A program made the translations under genes and the position numbers. A DNA stretch of 61,620 nt from a virus (taxonomy: Duplodnaviria; Caudoviricetes), in the IMG/VR virus record IMGVR_UViG_3300028559_000041, positions 1 through 61,620 of that record, one strand, 5' to 3'. A model generated the notes under the pieces. That model worked only from the letters and a program-made list of their open reading frames with translations, was not told where the DNA came from and did no database searches. This document shows, piece after piece, positions 2,100 to 61,620 of this stretch (position 1 is the first letter of the stretch; each line of letters starts with the position of its first letter).

Positions 2100-3230
2100 A
2101 TGAATTTAGAATTAATTTATATTAAAATATGTGAAAGAGGTCAAATAAGAATACTTGATAAATTAGTATATACTGAAAAACATCATATTATTCCAAGATG
2201 TATGAATGGATTTGATGATAAAACTAACATAACAACTTTGACAGCTAAAGAACATTTTATTTGCCATAAAATATTATGTGAGGTTTATCCAGAAAATGAG
2301 AAGTTGAGATATGCTTTTTGGGCAATGTGTAATCAAAAAGTCAATAGAGATTATATTGTTTCATCTAGAGATTATGAGTATGCTAAATCATTATGTTTAG
2401 AAATGTGGAAAAAACCAAAATCTAAAACTACAATCAATAAAATAAAAGATACAAAAAAACGCAACAAGATTTTAAGACAATTAAAAGGCGAAAAAATCAA
2501 TAGAAAACAAGATGCTGAACTCAATCACAATTATAATAAAAAATGGGTAACGAATATCTTAACAAATAAATCAAAAATGATAATTGGAGATATACCCGAA
2601 GGTTATAAATTAGGCAGAGTTAAAATTGGTAGCTTAGGCAAATCAAATTCAATTGGTAAAAAATGGTATCACAATCCAGAAACAGGTGAAGAAAAATATT
2701 TTAGTGTTGATGATGTTATTCCGAATGGTTGGTTATCTGGTCGTTCTAAACATATAAAATTAGGAGGCAATAATTTATCTGGTAAAATTTGTTACTTTAA
2801 TATTTCTTTGAATAAAGAGAAATATTTTAATAATGATGATGTTATACCTGATGATTGGGTAAAGGGTAAGTTAAAAAATAGATGTTGGTATTATAATAGC
2901 GAATTAAATATTGAAAAGTTATTCGATTTAGATTCGGTAGAATCTGGGTTTATTAGAGGCAGATTGCCTAAATTACCATTTAATGAGGAAATAATAAACT
3001 CAAGTGAATATATAAGAACTTTTAAAAGTGATATAGAAGAAGAATCTCTTATGTGGCATCGTGATTTCGAAGATAGAATAATAGAATCTATTGAAGAAAC
3101 TGATTGGAAATTTCAACTAGATGATAAATTACCAATCAATATAGAAGGTGAAATATTTATACCAAAAGGTGTTTATCACAGAATAATAAAAGGAACTGGT
3201 GATTTAAAAATTAAATTAAATAAACTTTAA
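2100..3230 (+). CDS. HNH homing endonuclease with W-Y-N..G(W/F)..GR repeats, fused to a C-terminal cupin-like domain
   Basis: EKHHIIPRCMNG.DD.TNITTLTAKEHFICHKIL is an HNH motif. Four KWY.N...EKYF....IP.GW..G-type repeats follow. The C-terminal WHRD...IFIPKGVYHRIIKG are cupin motifs. Confidence 0.75.
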   Translation: MNLELIYIKICERGQIRILDKLVYTEKHHIIPRCMNGFDDKTNITTLTAKEHFICHKILCEVYPENEKLRYAFWAMCNQKVNRDYIVSSRDYEYAKSLCLEMWKKPKSKTTINKIKDTKKRNKILRQLKGEKINRKQDAELNHNYNKKWVTNILTNKSKMIIGDIPEGYKLGRVKIGSLGKSNSIGKKWYHNPETGEEKYFSVDDVIPNGWLSGRSKHIKLGGNNLSGKICYFNISLNKEKYFNNDDVIPDDWVKGKLKNRCWYYNSELNIEKLFDLDSVESGFIRGRLPKLPFNEEIINSSEYIRTFKSDIEEESLMWHRDFEDRIIESIEETDWKFQLDDKLPINIEGEIFIPKGVYHRIIKGTGDLKIKLNKL

Positions 3231-6466: not shown

Positions 6467-8173
6467 TTAAATAACTTTATAAATCCATTTCTTATTACCC
6501 GCATTATATATCCTATAATAACCCAATTCACTCATAATCTCCTCCTCTGTTTTACTAACATCATAACCCATTTTAATTAATCTCTGCTTTCTCCAGTTGA
6601 ACCTATGATCTCTAATACCATCAATTACATACCAATATCCTGGTTTTGATGTATGTGAGTATTCAAATCCTAAAGTTTGATATAGATTTCCATTTGATAT
6701 TAAATTATCAGAATAGGTCTCTACTTGTATAGGATTATATTTTTTAATAAAATAATTCATCAATTTTGAAGCACCGCCAGTAACACTGGTGTTTATTTTG
6801 TTACAAAATCTAGTCAATTCATAATGTCTTTCTTTTTTTCTATTTTTTTCAATCTTTTGTAATGGAAGCCTTAACTTTGAAAAGGTCATAATACTCAACA
6901 ATTCATCATTATTAAATAATCCAATTCTTATTGATGATTTACAATCTCCCTGTAGGTGATTATTATCTAAAAACGTCTTAGATTCATTGTATGAAACTTC
7001 TCTAATAGAACAATTTCTAGCATATATTTTATTCGAAGTCCTTCCTAATTTATTTAAGATAAAAGATTCACATATCTCTCTATTTACTACCCAATCATCT
7101 TCCCAAATTGTTATTAAACTAATACCATTCAAATTTGATAGTTCATATTTTTTTAAATGATAATTCTCTTTTTTAAATCTCTCAGAATGCCACCAAATGC
7201 CATTAAATTCGAATCCTATTTTTAGATCTGGTAGATAAATATCCATTTCATATGGACTAATTATATTTTTGCAATCTAATATAACTTCACCAATATAATT
7301 CTTAGTAATAAAGTTATATAATTCAATTTGTGATATAGATGCATTATCGGATATCGGAAAACAATTAGTACATATACTAACACCACTATTTGTCCTATAA
7401 TAAAACTGGTAAGTTAATATATCAAAATCTTTTTTACATTCAAGACAATTAAATAACAAACTTGTTGATATTCCTCTTTGAAACTTTATAAATTTAAACT
7501 TATTAAAGTCAATCTTACTCTCTATTCTATCCTTATAAGAAGAATAAAAGAAATCTATTGTTTTATTATGTATATTCTTATCCATCCATGGATGATCTAC
7601 TCCATATTTCTCTAAAGATGTTTTTTTGTATGTTTCTCTATAATTACTTTGTTTAAAGGTTTGTATCCTTTTAAACAGAATATCTTTAGATTCGCTTGGA
7701 TTAGTAACACCATAGTTTCTAAATAGTGTGTCCTTCGATTTTTCCTGTGTTTCTAATAAACACATAGCCGAATTATGACCGTATCTTATCTGGTTTGTCT
7801 TAATAGCCTTATCCTTTACAATTTTTGACTGTGATGGTGACTTTGTTCCAAACCTTTTCAAAGATTTCTCCTCTTTCATCTTAATCATATTTGGATCAGA
7901 TGACACACATCTTCTACTACAATATTCAAGATATCCAATTGTTGAGTTTTTAAAATTTACTTTGTTTTTACAATTTATGTTTTTACAAACAGGTATGTTA
8001 TTTAACTTATTCAAAGCTAAATAAACCTTTTCTTTAAAGGATATGTCTAATAAATTATTATTATCACAATAATCTATTATATAATCATACTCTTCTCTAT
8101 GATTCTTAATCATAAATGGTTCCTTATACATACGACCCGAAGAATCTGGTAAATTAAATATTGATAAATCCAT
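6467..8173 (-). CDS. homing-endonuclease-like protein (KYG repeats, PD-(D/E)XK-like domain, C-terminal GNAT/Mom-like domain)
   Basis: Repeated (K/R)YG..NP/HP motifs; EMDIYLPDLKIGFEFNGIWWHS; ELTRFCNK...GGASKLM...TYSD...GNLY..LGF. Confidence 0.65.
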   Translation of the reverse strand: MDLSIFNLPDSSGRMYKEPFMIKNHREEYDYIIDYCDNNNLLDISFKEKVYLALNKLNNIPVCKNINCKNKVNFKNSTIGYLEYCSRRCVSSDPNMIKMKEEKSLKRFGTKSPSQSKIVKDKAIKTNQIRYGHNSAMCLLETQEKSKDTLFRNYGVTNPSESKDILFKRIQTFKQSNYRETYKKTSLEKYGVDHPWMDKNIHNKTIDFFYSSYKDRIESKIDFNKFKFIKFQRGISTSLLFNCLECKKDFDILTYQFYYRTNSGVSICTNCFPISDNASISQIELYNFITKNYIGEVILDCKNIISPYEMDIYLPDLKIGFEFNGIWWHSERFKKENYHLKKYELSNLNGISLITIWEDDWVVNREICESFILNKLGRTSNKIYARNCSIREVSYNESKTFLDNNHLQGDCKSSIRIGLFNNDELLSIMTFSKLRLPLQKIEKNRKKERHYELTRFCNKINTSVTGGASKLMNYFIKKYNPIQVETYSDNLISNGNLYQTLGFEYSHTSKPGYWYVIDGIRDHRFNWRKQRLIKMGYDVSKTEEEIMSELGYYRIYNAGNKKWIYKVI

Positions 8174-22380: not shown

Positions 22381-22662
22381 TTAGTTAGCTTCCATTGTAA
22401 CCGATAATCCGGCATCTCTTAGCTTATCTTTCATAGTTGAGATTGTCTCAAGATCCCCATACTTAACATCACACTCGCCTTTAAAGTGAACAATATGAGC
22501 GCATTGGTTCGCTTGCTCGAATTCATGTCCACATATTTTAACTAGACAAGTTATTACCCAATCGAATGAATTGTAATCATCATCTGATAAAATTAACCTC
22601 CAGGGTTGAGACAAAATATGTTCAACTTCTGATTTTGTTTTCTTTTTTGTAATTGTGTTCAT
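22381..22662 (-). CDS. clpS: ATP-dependent Clp protease adaptor ClpS
   Basis: LILSDDDYNSFDWVITCLVKICGHEFEQANQCAHIVHFKGECDVK...L...GLSVTME. Confidence 0.85.
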   Translation of the reverse strand: MNTITKKKTKSEVEHILSQPWRLILSDDDYNSFDWVITCLVKICGHEFEQANQCAHIVHFKGECDVKYGDLETISTMKDKLRDAGLSVTMEAN

Positions 22663-23558
22663 AAAATAGATTTTATTTGTGTTAATTTTTTATTATTTAA
22701 TATTAGTAAGTTTATATTATTTTTTTCAAGAAAGTTTTTCTTAATATTATCTCTATATATTTGATTGTAATAGACCTTATCTCCTCCCCAACATTCAATA
22801 GACTTATAATGTTGCACACCATGAACTTCGATTATCAGATTTTTTTCCGGAAGATAGAAATCAAATCTTAATTTTCTATTCGTTTTTGGGTTTACTAAGC
22901 CTTCAAAAGTTTTTTCACGAATATATTTTATATTTTTTTCATCAAGATATTTTAGAATATAATTTTCAGCGTACTTTAGATCAGTATTGGAACAATAAGG
23001 ACAACCTCTCTGACCATGTATGAAGGAATTCATAGACTTAAGATGTATTCTTTTACAGATGTTATGTCTGATGGACACTTTAGAATTACAATTACTCACC
23101 TCTTCTAATATTGTATAATCGTCGCACCAAATTTCTTTACATCTATAAATCCAATACTGATGTGATTTATGAGAATATTTGGAACAGGATTTACAAGCAT
23201 TTTTATGGTTAATATGGTTATTCATTGTCATTTCCAAGATAAGTCCACATTTCTTGTGGATAACCTGTACTTTATGTTTACTATTTTTTGGTTCATTTAA
23301 AATTTCAAATTCATAATTGTGAGTATCATCACTTAATTTTTGCCACTCTTGTTTTGTCTTCTTTTTCTTATTGTTACAATAGACACAGTATCTTTTGAGG
23401 TGGTTATTCAATCTTATTTGTAGAACTTTTTCACATTTCTTATGAAGAACTTTCACAATATGTTGACCACTCTGTGGATCTTCCAATATTTCAAATTCGG
23501 AATTATATTTCAAGTCACTCTCAATTTGCCACTCATATCTTGTTTTTCTTTTTGACAT
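22659..23558 (-). CDS. homing-endonuclease-like protein with HxxC/CxxC repeats and C-terminal PD-(D/E)XK domain
   Basis: Three H.(K/I)C....C..C units; LRFDFYLP...IIEVHGVQHY...D..K. Confidence 0.65.
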   Translation of the reverse strand: MSKRKTRYEWQIESDLKYNSEFEILEDPQSGQHIVKVLHKKCEKVLQIRLNNHLKRYCVYCNNKKKKTKQEWQKLSDDTHNYEFEILNEPKNSKHKVQVIHKKCGLILEMTMNNHINHKNACKSCSKYSHKSHQYWIYRCKEIWCDDYTILEEVSNCNSKVSIRHNICKRIHLKSMNSFIHGQRGCPYCSNTDLKYAENYILKYLDEKNIKYIREKTFEGLVNPKTNRKLRFDFYLPEKNLIIEVHGVQHYKSIECWGGDKVYYNQIYRDNIKKNFLEKNNINLLILNNKKLTQIKSIL

Positions 23559-40673: not shown

Positions 40674-40932
40674 AAATTATAAATCATTCTTAGAAGCAAT
40701 ATCCGGAACTGAACTAGTAGGACACATGGGTCCTAACTACGGCGAAGAAGATAACTCACCTATGAAAAAACTAGGAACCACTGATGTTATTTATTCAGAT
40801 ATGTTCGGAAAAATGGTACTATATGATGATTATCAAGACCTATATATGGATTATCTTAAAAAAGGTGGAACTCCACTTCAAGGATTTAATTTAGAAAACT
40901 TAGATAAGGTTTTAGGAGTTTTGAATAATTAA
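40663..40932 (+). CDS. small protein, tagged N-terminus (MKIKNYKSFLEA)
   Basis: 89-aa ORF. Confidence 0.65.
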   Translation: MKIKNYKSFLEAISGTELVGHMGPNYGEEDNSPMKKLGTTDVIYSDMFGKMVLYDDYQDLYMDYLKKGGTPLQGFNLENLDKVLGVLNN

Positions 40933-42164
40933 ATCTTATTTTTAAGACTCTCTTTCAAAATATCAAATATCCGGTCAATCTGGTCATATCTAATACGGAT
41001 TAAATCAATGTAATTATCTTCACAATAATCATTTTTAATTTTATCGTTTATTTTGAGTGATTCATATGATTTTAATCCACCGAAAAGCTCTACTGGTTCA
41101 TAGTGTTGAATTCCATCAAACTCTATAGCGATTCTGTATTTAGGTAGGTAGAAATCAAAAGGTAGTTTATATCTCAATCCAATACATCCATCAAACTTTT
41201 TTTGCCTAACATATTCAATCTGATTTATATCTAAAAATTTAGATATTTTCTTTTCACCCTTTGATTCATTACAATGAGAACAACCTGCACCACTCAAATG
41301 TGATGATGATACTTGTTCAAAATCACCGTGTATTTTACAAACTATTTTTACCTTTGTCTGATTATTCACATATTTAACCTTTGAGTAGTCATATAAAAAA
41401 TTATGTATCTCATTTGCTTCTTTTATAAATTGATTTGTTGTTTTTTTTAAAATTACTCTTTCGACCAATCCAGAAGAATGTATATGAGCTCCTGCTTTTT
41501 GTTCATATACCTTACCTTCAAATATTATTTTAACTTTGTTTTGACTACCACTATATTCAACCAATGAATAATCATATTTATCTCCGTGTTTATCATAACA
41601 TTTTCTTAAAAAGTCGTCTTGATTTTTTATAGTATCTCTTTCACAATTATATCCAAGTAGATGTAAAACCGGTTTCTGTCTATAAATGACATCATCATAT
41701 TTAATCAAAACTTCTATGTGTGATCCTTTATAATCCACTAATGAATAATCATATTTATAACCCCAAATTGATCTAGCATCATCTATAAAATCTCTGTTAC
41801 TTCTAAGTCGTCTAACTCTTTCTGGTTTACGACCCATTAAATGTTTACTTGGATTTTGCAAATATTCAATACCATCTTTTATAAGTACTACCTTTGTGTT
41901 CATGTTTTTAAAAACGGTCTTACTATATTCATACTCTTCACCATGTATCTTTTTGGACTCAAAAATGAACCTATCGGTGTCCCATCTCAATTCACACATT
42001 TTACCTAAGATGTGATCTTCTGCTTTTTGTGAAAATATCCAATCCTTGTAAATTATTTTAATACTTGTCTTCATATTTTTATAATCAACAAGTGAGTAAT
42101 CATATTTATCACCCCATATTTTCCTTGATTTACTTATAAAATCCTCATTAGATATTCTTTTCAT
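40929..42164 (-). CDS. homing-endonuclease-like protein with KYDYSLVxY repeats and C-terminal PD-(D/E)XK domain
   Basis: Five F......G.KYDYS.V.Y-type repeats; SKGE..I, LPFDFYLP...IEFDGIQHY. Confidence 0.7.
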   Translation of the reverse strand: MKRISNEDFISKSRKIWGDKYDYSLVDYKNMKTSIKIIYKDWIFSQKAEDHILGKMCELRWDTDRFIFESKKIHGEEYEYSKTVFKNMNTKVVLIKDGIEYLQNPSKHLMGRKPERVRRLRSNRDFIDDARSIWGYKYDYSLVDYKGSHIEVLIKYDDVIYRQKPVLHLLGYNCERDTIKNQDDFLRKCYDKHGDKYDYSLVEYSGSQNKVKIIFEGKVYEQKAGAHIHSSGLVERVILKKTTNQFIKEANEIHNFLYDYSKVKYVNNQTKVKIVCKIHGDFEQVSSSHLSGAGCSHCNESKGEKKISKFLDINQIEYVRQKKFDGCIGLRYKLPFDFYLPKYRIAIEFDGIQHYEPVELFGGLKSYESLKINDKIKNDYCEDNYIDLIRIRYDQIDRIFDILKESLKNKI

Positions 42165-51787: not shown

Positions 51788-52396
51788 ATGAAAATAATAT
51801 GTATTTACTCTATAAAAAATATGGAAAATGAAAAGATATATATCGGTAGTTCAGTTGATTTCAATAGAAGGAAAAGAGTGCATTTAAATTTACTTTTTAA
51901 AAATAAACATCACTCAATAAAGCTTCAAAATAGTTTTAATAAACATGGATTTGATAAATTTCATTTTAGTATTTTAGAAATGGTTGACAGTATCGATTTA
52001 TTAATAGAAATTGAGCAAAAATATTTAACAAAACTTAAACCGGATTTAAATATGACACATATAGCTGGATTAAACTCACATATCGGCTTAAAAAGGAGTG
52101 AAACAACTAAAGAGAAAATAAGATTGTCAAATACTGGAAAATTAACATCAGAAGAGACTAAAGAAAAACTTAGACAACATAACTTAGGAAAAAAACAAAG
52201 TAAGGAGACAAAAGATAAAAAGGCAAAAGCACTTTACAAACCAATTATACAAATCAAAAATGATGGAGAAACGATTGAATGGGAGAGTGCAACAGTTGCA
52301 TCCAATGTATTAGGTATAAGTAGAAGAGTAATATATGCGTGTCTTTGGGGCACAAAAAAGACCTATAAAAAAAGTAAATGGATTTATAAAAAATAA
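51788..52396 (+). CDS. GIY-YIG homing endonuclease with NUMOD3 repeats
   Basis: CIYSIKN.....IYIGSS....R...H, EQKYL......N; three SE(T/E)TKEK-type repeats. Confidence 0.85.
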   Translation: MKIICIYSIKNMENEKIYIGSSVDFNRRKRVHLNLLFKNKHHSIKLQNSFNKHGFDKFHFSILEMVDSIDLLIEIEQKYLTKLKPDLNMTHIAGLNSHIGLKRSETTKEKIRLSNTGKLTSEETKEKLRQHNLGKKQSKETKDKKAKALYKPIIQIKNDGETIEWESATVASNVLGISRRVIYACLWGTKKTYKKSKWIYKK

Positions 52397-59405: not shown

Positions 59406-60182
59406 ATGTCAAAATTAACTATACTATTAAAACCTAATAAATTTGATGACTTTTTAACAAAATTGGAAGATTTAGCTAAAATAAGTGACACGATTAAACT
59501 AAAAATAGATTCAGAAAATATATTAATGTATTCTATTGTTGGAGAAACAATACTTTTGGCATTTAAAAGTTATTTAGTGGATACCAAAGATTATTTTGAG
59601 ATGAAAGAAGATTTGGAAAATACAATAGATATGATAATATCTGGAGCTAAAAAATTTGTCAAAAATCTTAGTTTTATTAAATCATCAGAAAAAATTACAA
59701 TGAATATCGATTATCGAACTACTGATGATGATATATCACTAGTAAGATTTAGTCAAATTAAAAATGGTAAATTAAAAATTGGTCTCCAAGGAGGAGAATC
59801 ATCAGAAATTCGAGATATTAATAAATCTACTTTATCTAAAAGAGTTGATATTAAAAATAGTAAATGGTCTTTTAAAATTGATAAATCAGAATTTCAAGAT
59901 ATTAAAAAATTATCATCAATTAATTCAGATGGTAAAGTAATAAATTTAAATATAGACGATAAAAAAGTTGTCTTATCTGAATCATCTACTTGGGAATTCC
60001 AAGTAGATGAAGTTGATCTAACAGATAGACATTTAATGTTTAATAAAACATTTTTACCATCTATAAATGAAAATAGTGATAAAATTCAATTTTATGTATT
60101 TGATACTTTTATATTAACAAAAGATGAAACAAGTCACTTAATGATTTCATTTGAACAGGATTTTACAAATGATGATGATTAA
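59406..60182 (+). CDS. sliding clamp-like protein (gp45/PCNA fold)
   Basis: 258 aa with a two-fold beta-alpha-beta pattern (LEDLAKISDTIKLKID / IKKLSSINSDGKVINLNID); lies close to the polymerase gene. Confidence 0.5.
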   Translation: MSKLTILLKPNKFDDFLTKLEDLAKISDTIKLKIDSENILMYSIVGETILLAFKSYLVDTKDYFEMKEDLENTIDMIISGAKKFVKNLSFIKSSEKITMNIDYRTTDDDISLVRFSQIKNGKLKIGLQGGESSEIRDINKSTLSKRVDIKNSKWSFKIDKSEFQDIKKLSSINSDGKVINLNIDDKKVVLSESSTWEFQVDEVDLTDRHLMFNKTFLPSINENSDKIQFYVFDTFILTKDETSHLMISFEQDFTNDDD

Positions 60183-61328
60183 TTAAAATATTTTTATAAA
60201 TTCCTCTTCAATTAAACTACCCTTTATGGAGTTCAAATATCTTTTAGTTATGCATAAATTATCAATATCTCCTATTATTTCCGGATCTATGTTATTATTA
60301 AATCCATAAAAAACACTAATCTTGTGGTCTATACAAGGATAAAACCTATGAGTATGTGAGTAGGCAAGATAGGTTTTTATAACCTCATCATCATAATAAT
60401 CATTACCGTTCCAATTTTCATAGAGAGTTTTCTTATTCTTGTTTGTTATTTTCCTAACTTTCCTTTTATATATTTTCCAATCAGGTAATAATGAATCAGG
60501 TATAATTTGATTATTCTCTATCTTAGTTTTAATTATCCTATCATATATTTCAGAGACTTGCGAAACATTTTCAAATCCATATTTTTCTAAACAAGTATCC
60601 TTTTTCTTCTTTTCAATTTCATCTATCTTATTAATAAAGTTAATTCTCCAATCTTCAGTTTTAAAAATAGAATCAACTCCGTATTTTTTTAAAAATGAAG
60701 ATTTCATTTTACTAATAATCATTTCTTTATTCTCTTGAATTTTATTTTTAAAATACTCAGTTTTTGAGTATGAATCAAATCCCCAGTTTTTTATTAACGT
60801 CAATTTGGATTTATTTTTAAATTCATCAGAAGACATCCATATCCTATTTGAATCTATAATTTCTGGTCTCATTAATGGATTTGTAAATCCATACTTTTCC
60901 AAGCAAGTTTGTTTAGTTTTTTCTCTAAAATCCTTTAACATATTTGGATTTTTAACTCCATATTTTTCTAAGCAAGTTTTATTATATTTTTCCTTAAAGT
61001 CATCAGTTTCAGAAAACGATTTAACACCAAATAATTTTAGATTAGTCATTTCTTTCTTTTTATTTTTACAACCAAAACATGAATAAAAATTATAACCTCC
61101 TCTTTCAAAGTTTTTCCAATACTTTGAAAGTGTAATGTAATTTTCACAATTACACAAGTCACAAATAGCAGTTATTCTAACCTTAGAATTTTTTGGAATG
61201 TCTTTAATTAGTACTTCTAATATTTTTTTATCGGAAAAACCACCAATATGTATATCATATCCCAATAACTTATAGTGTGATATGTTTCTTGAATTTACGG
61301 AGACTAAAACATTTTTTTCTTTTATCAT
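60183..61328 (-). CDS. homing-endonuclease-like protein with TCLEKYG repeats and C-terminal HNH-like motif
   Basis: CDLC/CFGC, several KYG repeats, IDHKISV..GF....I..IDNLCIT...NS.K. Confidence 0.7.
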   Translation of the reverse strand: MIKEKNVLVSVNSRNISHYKLLGYDIHIGGFSDKKILEVLIKDIPKNSKVRITAICDLCNCENYITLSKYWKNFERGGYNFYSCFGCKNKKKEMTNLKLFGVKSFSETDDFKEKYNKTCLEKYGVKNPNMLKDFREKTKQTCLEKYGFTNPLMRPEIIDSNRIWMSSDEFKNKSKLTLIKNWGFDSYSKTEYFKNKIQENKEMIISKMKSSFLKKYGVDSIFKTEDWRINFINKIDEIEKKKKDTCLEKYGFENVSQVSEIYDRIIKTKIENNQIIPDSLLPDWKIYKRKVRKITNKNKKTLYENWNGNDYYDDEVIKTYLAYSHTHRFYPCIDHKISVFYGFNNNIDPEIIGDIDNLCITKRYLNSIKGSLIEEEFIKIF

Positions 61329-61405
61329 ATAAAAACTAATTAATTTTATTATATATAAAATAACATATATACCTTTTAGGATATATTTAAAAAATAATTA
61401 AAAAA

Positions 61406-61620
61406 TTGACTAAACAAGAAAAATTAAATAAAATCGAGTTATTAAAAAATAAAGCCAGCGAGTTGAAAAGGGAAAGTGATTACTACAATGCCTTACAGCT
61501 CGCTCTTTTTTAACCCCCTCAAATTTATTTGAGGGGGTATTGACTAAAACTTATATTGAACGGATCTTATGGTGCATTTGCGACGCAATACTTCATACTT
61601 TTCAACCAACACGTTGCTGG
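61406..61620 (+). CDS. family B DNA polymerase, C-terminal piece (motif B onward); interrupted by a 39-nt insert and truncated by the window end
   Basis: TTG start. Reads TKQEKLNKIELLKNKASELKRESDYYNALQLAL, then in the same frame KLILNGSYGAFATQYFILFNQHVA, the PolB motif B pattern (Q...KxxxN(S/G)xYG). Confidence 0.75.
61505..61546 (+). other. 39-nt in-frame hairpin insert with TAA and TGA inside PolB motif B
   Basis: CTT TTT TAA CCC CCT CAA ATT TAT TTG AGG GGG TAT TGA CTA; stem ACCCCCTCAAA/TTTGAGGGGGT. Confidence 0.8.

Follow-up and report, generated by a model that had tools for sequence, protein, structure and literature searches.

The window analysed here is the whole of a linear viral contig of 61,620 bases (IMG/VR record IMGVR_UViG_3300028559_000041), estimated by CheckV to be 10% complete, and it closes within polB-C, a gene that encodes the C subunit of a split family B DNA polymerase. 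Between codon 34 of this gene and the lysine of polymerase motif B, the reading frame is interrupted by a 39-nucleotide (nt) segment that holds stop codons and a hairpin, and it is this coding gap, probably a programmed translational bypass element, that is the subject of the present analysis. The features at the locus, with the hairpin stem given in base pairs (bp), are as follows.

61406..61507, + strand: first coding segment of polB-C, with a TTG start, codons 1-34, ending ...YYNALQLAL (from the open reading frame listing and translation).
61505..61507, + strand: proposed take-off codon CUU (Leu34), the last codon matching the gap-free homologues.
61508..61546, + strand: the 39-nt coding gap, made up of UUU UAA, the hairpin, the AU-rich tail UAUUGA and the landing triplet.
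61513..61538, + strand: hairpin 6 nt past the take-off codon, its 11-bp stem made of a C5/G5 base and a variable upper part, its loop UUUA.
61544..61546, + strand: proposed landing triplet CUA, which ends all 13 gaps found after Leu34 and changes with the insertion site.
61547..61620, + strand: resumed polB-C coding with motif B KLILNGSYGAFATQYFILFNQHVA, from translation and alignment to relatives, running off the contig end.

At the site the sequence reads CTC GCT CTT (61505-61507) TTT TAA CCC CCT CAA ATT TAT TTG AGG GGG TAT TGA CTA (61544-61546) AAA CTT ATA TTG AAC GGA TCT TAT GGT, and its translation, with X at the stops, is ...YYNALQLALFXPPQIYLRGYXLKLILNGSYGAF, the two in-frame stops within the gap being TAA at 61511-61513 and TGA at 61541-61543. 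The sequence, frame and stops at 61505-61546 are thus as an earlier note on this DNA had read them. Its proposal that removal of exactly 39 nt restores the conserved frame is borne out by alignment to the two nearest GenBank huge-phage records, both of which lack exactly these 39 nt and read QLALKLVLNGSYG unbroken. The CT direct repeat that the same note placed at the borders of the insert does exist, but it consists of the first two letters of the CTT and CTA codons.

The hairpin is formed by the arms ACCCCCTCAAA and TTTGAGGGGGT at 61513-61523 and 61528-61538, respectively, around a loop at 61524-61527. Its 11-bp stem and 4-nt loop, both described previously, constitute the minimum-energy fold of the region (-19 kcal/mol, z -2.78), and none of 200 shuffles folds as well; an extension of the stem by UUAA/UUGA pairing, suggested at the same time, does not occur in the predicted fold. 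Six nt separate the G-run from CUA. When the covariance model R1 was applied to the window, the gap was the only strong match (55.2 bits, E 8e-15; next best 13 bits). No Rfam match was found in 61200-61620, and an exact search of both hairpin arms in viral contigs gave 0 matches. Within the window the 11-nt arm has 9 matches at no more than 2 mismatches against 10.6 expected, the exact matches being the two arms only. An intrinsic terminator had already been argued against, and this candidate is rejected here as well: 0 terminator-like sites occur on either strand in 60000-61620, and the terminators of relatives carry A and T tracts.

For the gene that carries the gap, both GenBank relatives contain an open reading frame of 474 amino acids that begins at the point equivalent to 61406, 33-34 codons before motif B, and its product matches the Pfam family DNA_pol_B (PF00136, E 4e-20) as well as positions 493-839 of the 856 in PHROG 262, a T4-type polymerase profile. 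Searches with the latter profile in three whole relatives (two of them 98% complete) recovered exactly one N part and one C part in each, and no second copy of polB-C in any of them. The distance between the two parts is ~95 kb in G001 and G003 and ~130 kb in G002, their coordinates being 171951-173477 and 76058-77326 in G001 and 232990-234228 and 365459-366478 in G002. The family B polymerase of this clade is therefore split, as it is in all relatives of the window phage, including all of those that are free of the gap, and polB-C truly begins at 61406. A polymerase N part was not found in the window.

After the gap, the frame runs uninterrupted for ~430 codons in relatives, and the ratio of nonsynonymous to synonymous substitution rates (dN/dS) downstream of it is 0.08-0.12 in six gap-bearing pairs, a seventh pair being saturated at synonymous sites, and 0.09 in a gap-free pair. 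The downstream frame of the interrupted gene is under strong purifying selection. Taken together, the open frame and a dN/dS of ~0.1 suggest that the interrupted polB-C, the only copy in the near-complete relatives, is expressed in its proper frame, and the possibility of a pseudogene, raised as a check in the earlier note, found no support in the relatives.

To place the gap in its family, loci were collected with the relatives' polB-C protein as the query, 42 from viral and 74 from metagenome contigs; the window and the two GenBank records bring the total to 119 sources, and 115 of these were scorable across motif B. The alignment of orthologues that had been recommended thus shows both states of the site: 48 loci carry between +37 and +86 nt in motif B, 66 carry no insertion, and a single locus has -1 nt. 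After dereplication, the gap-bearing loci comprise 34 distinct versions with 33 distinct gap sequences, inserted after four different codons, namely Ala33 (2 versions), Leu34 (13, including the window), Val37 (1) and Tyr42 (18). Gap lengths range from 37 to 48 nt and fall into all three frames, with 11 versions being multiples of three, 15 of the +1 class and 8 of the +2 class.

The versions share a common architecture. The C-run begins at nt 7 of the gap, placing the hairpin 6 nt from the take-off codon, in 30 of the 34 versions, and the stem extends to the take-off codon itself in L012, L045 and L119. The stem combines an invariant C-run/G-run base with a freely covarying upper part: among 12 aligned versions, 97% of stem cells are paired (48-56% in slid controls), and 5 of 11 pairs change on both sides, giving 19 such cells against 7.0 in shuffles, a value that 0 of 500 shuffles reach. 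The sense strand folds more stably than its complement in 28/34 versions, by a mean of 3.4 kcal/mol and via G-U pairs, which points to a role of the hairpin as messenger RNA. In 27 versions the second gap codon is a stop, in 2 the first is, and in 5 neither is. On the 3' side, the G-run and the last triplet are 5-9 nt apart in 30/34 versions, the interval being AU-rich, and the G-run ends 5-8 nt before the landing triplet in 28/34, the full range of the 3' edge being 5-14 nt after the G-run.

In five whole relatives, model R1 gave one strong match per genome, at the polB-C site, and the weak matches in whole relatives (E 0.02-0.6) proved to be intergenic terminators that have similar stems and are accompanied by A and T tracts. 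Such terminators are seen, for example, at ~1500-1535 of L058 and ~1505-1535 of L054, where a CCCTC...GAGGG stem lacking the extra C/G pairs of the gap hairpin stands between an A tract and a T tract. The hairpin of the gap may have been derived from a terminator-like hairpin of this kind. A dispersed family resembling the byp elements of yeast mitochondria was considered as well and dropped, as the weak matches are ordinary terminators. One further locus deserves mention: L116, a metagenome contig of 1471 nt, has two hairpin gaps in polB-C that lie 15 nt apart. The first (782-828) consists of 47 nt after Val37, leads from GUU to GUU and has a stop directly after the take-off codon, and the second (844-882) consists of 39 nt after Tyr42 and leads from UAU to UAA. 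If both were hopped, this would be a tandem double bypass.

The most telling property of the family concerns the codons on either side of the gap. For the gaps after Leu34, the preceding codon is CUU in 11 versions, CUC in one and CUG in one, and the last triplet of the gap is CUA in all 13. The two gaps after Ala33 are preceded by GCU and end in GCA, the single gap after Val37 has GUU in both places, and seven of those after Tyr42 are preceded by UAU and end in UAC. The take-off codon and landing triplet are thus readable by one tRNA in 23 of the 34 versions, against 0 of 258 triplets at other offsets in the tails and 0 of 658 matches when the codons of one site were compared with the triplets of another. 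In the 22 pairs that are synonymous without being identical, the direction of the change is constant and never reversed; by standard decoding rules, the first codon would be read by wobble and the second would be the Watson-Crick partner of a U34 or G34 anticodon. That the codons are synonymous rather than identical had been entered as a caveat in the earlier note, and it turns out to be a family-wide pattern, which is likewise described for homologues of T4 gene 60 (Manning and Atkins, bioRxiv 10.1101/2022.08.31.505936). Such tracking of the preceding codon by the last triplet of the gap looks like the signature of peptidyl-tRNA re-pairing in translational bypassing.

It is therefore plausible, and in our view likely, that 61508-61546 is a programmed translational bypass element that works in the manner of T4 gene 60 without being homologous to it, and the three frames, the codon tracking at four sites and the purifying selection downstream all favour a hop from CUU to CUA over excision, the two routes that had been offered in the earlier note. 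The ribosome would translate 34 codons and bring CUU (61505-61507) into its P site, at which point the base of the hairpin stands at +9/+10. The C5/G5-based hairpin 6 nt downstream would then block decoding of the next codons, with UUU acting as a poor A-site codon and the UAA behind it as a fail-safe stop. Peptidyl-tRNA-Leu would let go of CUU, a codon that a U34 tRNA reads only via wobble, and the ribosome would slide across the hairpin and the 6-nt AU-rich tail until the same tRNA re-paired with CUA (61544-61546). Translation would resume at AAA, the codon of the essential motif B lysine, yielding one intact protein, and a continuous polB-C product would contain the junction peptide ESDYYNALQLALK spanning Leu34-Lys35. 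The hop itself, the identity of its tRNA and the part played by the hairpin on the ribosome are inferred.

A number of observations weigh against such a bypass. Eleven of the 34 versions, all of them after Tyr42, end in a triplet that does not match UAU, namely AAC (4), UAA (4), AAU, AGC or GAC. In the 27 versions with the stop in second place, of which the window is one, take-off codon and stop are kept apart by a sense codon, as had been cautioned for the Phe codon of the window. A hop from CUU to CUA requires one tRNA-Leu that reads both; there are no tRNA genes in the window, and in two near-complete relatives the tRNAs are those for Ile, Met, Gln, Trp, Cys, Arg and Glu, with none detected for Leu, Ala or Tyr, so that a dedicated hopping tRNA is not apparent in them. 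The fixed polarity of the stem, with C5 before G5, has no explanation in these terms. The contig stops 74 nt past the gap, leaving 24 codons of the remainder of polB-C visible, and the 24 public runs that hold the gap region are DNA, from lake and estuary metagenomes, with none recorded as RNA. Finally, a role of the G-run as a mini-Shine-Dalgarno sequence aiding the landing is doubtful and cannot be assumed, because the genes of the window are without Shine-Dalgarno motifs: such a motif lies upstream of 3 of the 62 open reading frames of at least 110 residues, against a background of 9.5%. Given this scarcity, the host probably starts translation without Shine-Dalgarno sites. Initiation independent of such sites is a habit of Bacteroidota. 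Many of the open reading frame starts in the window are preceded by TATATA-like AT-rich boxes.

Pairing in the P site is described as tolerating deviations (Manning and Atkins, bioRxiv 10.1101/2022.08.31.505936), but the 11 unmatched versions still speak against a strict matching rule. Stem-loops near the mRNA entry, 11-12 nt from the first P-site nucleotide and thus close to the +9/+10 of the hairpin base here, were shown to dock in the A site and to keep tRNA from binding there irrespective of the codon (bioRxiv 10.1101/2020.02.05.936120), and a block of the A site by the hairpin may likewise explain why a sense codon can follow the take-off codon here.

The main rival to a translational bypass is excision at the RNA level, in which an endoribonuclease and an RNA ligase, of the phage or of its host, would cut out the hairpin-marked segment as a tiny intron-like element. 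A conserved, covarying hairpin in the sense-strand RNA would suit this explanation, gap lengths in all frames fit it equally well as hopping, and the 11 unmatched versions at Tyr42 are easier to explain if tRNA pairing is not needed. However, excision gives no reason why the last triplet of the gap should follow the preceding codon at four sites, nor why a stop should fall within the first two gap codons in 29 of the 34 versions. The edges of the gap are also unlike those expected from a nuclease that measures a structure symmetrically, the 5' edge being fixed 6 nt from the stem and the 3' edge varying between 5 and 14 nt past the G-run. Besides the lack of an Rfam match, a length of 39 nt is far below the size of self-splicing introns, and excision is on the whole improbable.

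A second alternative keeps the stop as a true end, with termination at UAA freeing a 35-residue peptide and the remainder of the protein restarting after the hairpin, as a further split of a polymerase that in this clade is already divided only 34 codons upstream. The G-rich 3' arm does resemble a ribosome-binding site and several tails contain AUG, but these AUGs (UAAAUGACUA) are out of frame, and no in-frame start exists between the hairpin and the essential lysine: the frame of the window reads UGA CUA AAA, and its first in-frame UUG (61556) falls after the lysine. A restart guided by the G-rich arm would also be at odds with phage genes that do not use Shine-Dalgarno sites, and the gaps after Tyr42 would part K...N..Y from G inside one helix. 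Such a further split is accordingly regarded as very unlikely.

Less likely still is that the insert represents damage by a selfish element, so that the interrupted polB-C does not work and another polymerase replicates the phage. With only 74 nt visible past the gap in a genome that is ~10% complete, and with the N part missing from the window, a second copy is possible in this particular phage. Nevertheless, the frame downstream of the gap is open and as constrained as in the gap-free pair across diverged versions, the near-complete relatives have one N part and one C part only, and the hairpin is maintained by compensatory changes, none of which would be expected of a dead gene.

An artefact of assembly or sequencing at the contig end can be set aside almost entirely: the feature does lie close to the end and assemblies do break at the hairpin (in X6, X15 and L130), but contigs of two other runs bridge the gap without differences and 47 other loci from many samples have homologous gaps. 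For this comparison, which answers the earlier call for a misassembly check at the level of contigs, the Logan contigs of four runs (X3, X11, X6 and X15), none of them flagged as a possible source of the record, were compared with the window. The X3 contig (record 19) spans 60811-61620 and the X11 contig (record 8) spans 61390-61620, extending 27 nt past the window end, both matching it without any difference or gap, and the Logan contigs listed for the four runs include no form that lacks the 39 nt. The X6 contig ends at 61519, the X15 contigs begin at 61537, and the last bases of contig L130 are the take-off codon and stop. The hairpin of the gap thus seems prone to break assemblies. An X15 contig of a diverged relative has a joint from 61455 to 61586 that skips 130 nt (side 26), and this differs from a form lacking the 39 nt.

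Several further candidates were rejected. As gap lengths occur in all three frames, with 23 of the 34 not being multiples of three, read-through or recoding of the stops cannot serve generally. Two compensating frameshifts are ruled out by the absence of slippery sites and the variable gap lengths. A self-splicing intron or intein does not agree with a segment of 39 nt that contains stops, has no Rfam match and shifts the frame in relatives. A target-site duplication as the sole source of the repeated triplet was discarded because the two copies differ systematically at the third letter, and in one direction.

Beyond the findings of the earlier note, which did not include the split of the polymerase in all relatives, the gap is tied to an endonuclease-like gene immediately upstream of polB-C. 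The two neighbouring genes on this side are as follows.

59406..60182, + strand: conserved gene for 258 amino acids, found by tblastn at 43-54% identity upstream of polB-C in many related loci.
60183..61328, - strand: free-standing homing-endonuclease-like gene for 381 amino acids, matching Pfam DUF7487 (E 2e-22) and PHROG 3339 and 12131.

The 258-residue product, which had been called clamp-like at first reading, has no Pfam and no PHROG match. For the 381-residue protein, the matches to PHROG 3339 and 12131, both annotated as 'homing endonuclease', have E-values of 6e-14 and 1.5e-13, respectively, and the sequence displays an N-terminal CxxC...CxxC, repeated KYGV modules (DUF7487) and a C-terminal DH...N...N motif that appears conserved by eye. 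An HNH domain was not matched in Pfam at E up to 5, in NCBIfam or among PDB sequences. An AlphaFold2 model built from 8 sequences has a mean predicted local distance difference test score (pLDDT) of 66, falling below 50 over most of residues 309-381, and a Foldseek search of this model against PDB had no match at E up to 0.001.

When dereplicated loci that extend 1300 nt or more upstream are compared, a homologue of the endonuclease gene lies between the conserved upstream gene and polB-C in 15 of 23 that bear the gap (13 full, 2 partial, 8 none) and in 1 of 39 that do not (full in one, none in 38). The sole gap-free carrier, L125, in which the homologue lies upstream of 3001, is an exception to the link between nuclease and gap, and it carries a mini-intein-like insert in motif C. 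On a tree of polB-C with 39 rows, built without the motif B columns, the gap state changes 12 times, and in 8 independent pairs the nuclease gene accompanies the gap in a mean of 5.3 and opposes it in none (median p 0.06). A comparison of two close loci indicates the extent of the mobile segment. L011 has a gap after Ala33 together with the nuclease gene, and L017 has a gap after Tyr42 and lacks the nuclease gene; their flanks are 96% identical (173/180 upstream and 1243/1290 downstream), whereas the first 99 nt of polB-C have 72% identity (71/99), with similarity resuming at the end of the gap. The confinement of this drop to the 5' segment of polB-C suggests that the mobile unit comprises the endonuclease-like gene, the first ~100 nt of polB-C and the gap, with one edge of the cassette upstream of the endonuclease gene and the other at the gap. 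Inspection of residues 1-34 by eye revealed no peptide signature that distinguishes alleles with the gap from those without it.

A similar layout is described for the MobA element of T4, in which carriers of the gap are spared from being nicked by MobA (Manning and Atkins, bioRxiv 10.1101/2022.08.31.505936). By analogy, we infer that the gap would break the target of the nuclease in the conserved DNA of motif B and thereby protect its carriers.

Motif B is not the only part of this subunit that has been invaded. Motif C (DTDS) carries an in-frame, mini-intein-like insert (C...HN, then S) in L041 (3349-3822) and L125 (3301-3795), and larger inserts occur at the same motif C codon in L032, L109 and L111 (~1.6 kb) and in L033-L035 (~500 nt), some of them changing the frame. 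In L037-L040, ~73 residues of the C subunit (reference residues 133-205) are absent with the frame kept, and this stretch of polB-C is a variable, dispensable insertion in the palm/thumb region. Within the window, further free-standing endonuclease-like open reading frames are located at 6467-8173 (-), 2100-3230 (+), 40929-42164 (-), 22659-23558 (-) and 51788-52396 (+); one of these matches DUF7487, the others have no Pfam match, and one is GIY-YIG-like by eye. The phage seems to be heavily colonised by selfish genes. The window is AT-rich (G+C 25-40%) and encodes a T4-type large terminase, a RecA/UvsX-like protein, an Mre11-like phosphoesterase and a sheath-like giant protein. Uncultured huge phages of 635-735 kb, including LR745206.1 and LR756502.1, are the named relatives closest to it.

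Among known systems, a split family B polymerase in T4-like phages is reportedly represented by genes 43A and 43B of Aeromonas phage Aeh1 and relatives (said to be the work of Petrov et al. in 2006). In both cases the N and C parts are encoded separately, and the polymerase is divided in its fingers region, a short way ahead of motif B. The present clade differs in that the two genes are 95-130 kb apart in near-complete relatives and that the C gene additionally carries the hairpin gap.

The closest functional parallel appears to be T4 gene 60. In each system an essential replication gene is split and its second half is interrupted after a few dozen codons (34 here, 46 in T4), and both have a stem-loop at the take-off site and a stop at or near the start of the gap. 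Homologues of gene 60 share with the present family the wobble-matched take-off and landing codons, which in both shift when the site moves by one codon (bioRxiv 10.1101/2022.08.31.505936). They also share an AU-rich tail before the landing triplet, to which the G-rich stretch seen here in most versions may be compared, and a patchy distribution that includes 'hit and run' carriers devoid of the nuclease. A free-standing endonuclease gene beside the gap and a mobile segment that ends at the gap are common to both systems, the homologues of gene 60 being described as having an HNH element, a short N-terminal segment and a gap that ends at the landing codon (Manning and Atkins, bioRxiv 10.1101/2022.08.31.505936). 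Despite these similarities, the host gene here is a family B polymerase interrupted at motif B and not a topoisomerase, and no sequence homology was seen; in the main text of that preprint the homologues reported occur in topoisomerase genes of myoviruses only, and 'polymerase' appears there 0 times.

Other differences from T4 gene 60 concern the element itself. The gaps of the present family measure 37-48 nt, compared with 50 nt in T4, their hairpin has an invariant C5/G5 base and begins 6 nt past the take-off codon, and the stop mostly comes as the second gap codon, whereas it follows the take-off codon directly in T4. Four insertion sites are used, with L116 having two gaps in tandem. The nuclease is of the DUF7487 type and is encoded on the opposite strand, unlike that of T4 MobA, and the split of the gene is also found in all gap-free relatives. 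In addition, the host here seems not to use Shine-Dalgarno sites, and the family is known from sequence alone. The polB-C element probably works like the gene 60/MobA family but is not a member of it by descent.

A further parallel is offered by the byp elements of Magnusiomyces capitatus mitochondria, reportedly described by Lang et al. in PNAS in 2014. These are likewise short untranslatable inserts (27-55 nt) in essential genes of an AT-rich genome, and both families share a matching of take-off and landing codons that tolerates wobble and larger deviations, an AU-rich 3' part and the absence of Shine-Dalgarno use. The byp elements are dispersed, with 81 copies in 12 of 15 genes, whereas a single element per genome occurs here, in polB-C only. 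The present element is moreover linked to an endonuclease, and it resides in a bacterial virus rather than an organelle.

On balance, the cassettes may well constitute a second, independently evolved family of ribosome-hop elements borne by homing endonucleases, one that has invaded motif B of a split polymerase in huge freshwater phages, operates on ribosomes that do not use Shine-Dalgarno sites, follows a rule of 'weak take-off, strong landing' and possibly occurs in tandem. To our knowledge, T4 gene 60 is the sole example of efficient long-range bypassing with bench evidence, and one yeast mitochondrion provides the other established case. Bypassing is termed 'an isolated phenomenon' in the abstract of the preprint cited above (Manning and Atkins, bioRxiv 10.1101/2022.08.31.505936). 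No description of a coding gap in a phage polymerase was found in the literature searched, which includes the main text of that preprint, whose supplements may list metagenomic cases.

For the study of bypassing, the natural variants amount to a mutational series for take-off, slide and landing, as they comprise four sites, three frames, a variety of loops, matched and unmatched triplets and a tandem pair. The family would test which requirements of the hop hold on ribosomes that do not rely on Shine-Dalgarno pairing, and it would reveal a way for homing endonucleases to settle in catalytic motifs while the gene stays functional. There is also a consequence for annotation, in that gene callers will mislabel these essential polymerases as truncated or frameshifted. 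If the interpretation is true, hopping would be a general and evolvable route by which selfish DNA enters indispensable sequence, beyond T4.

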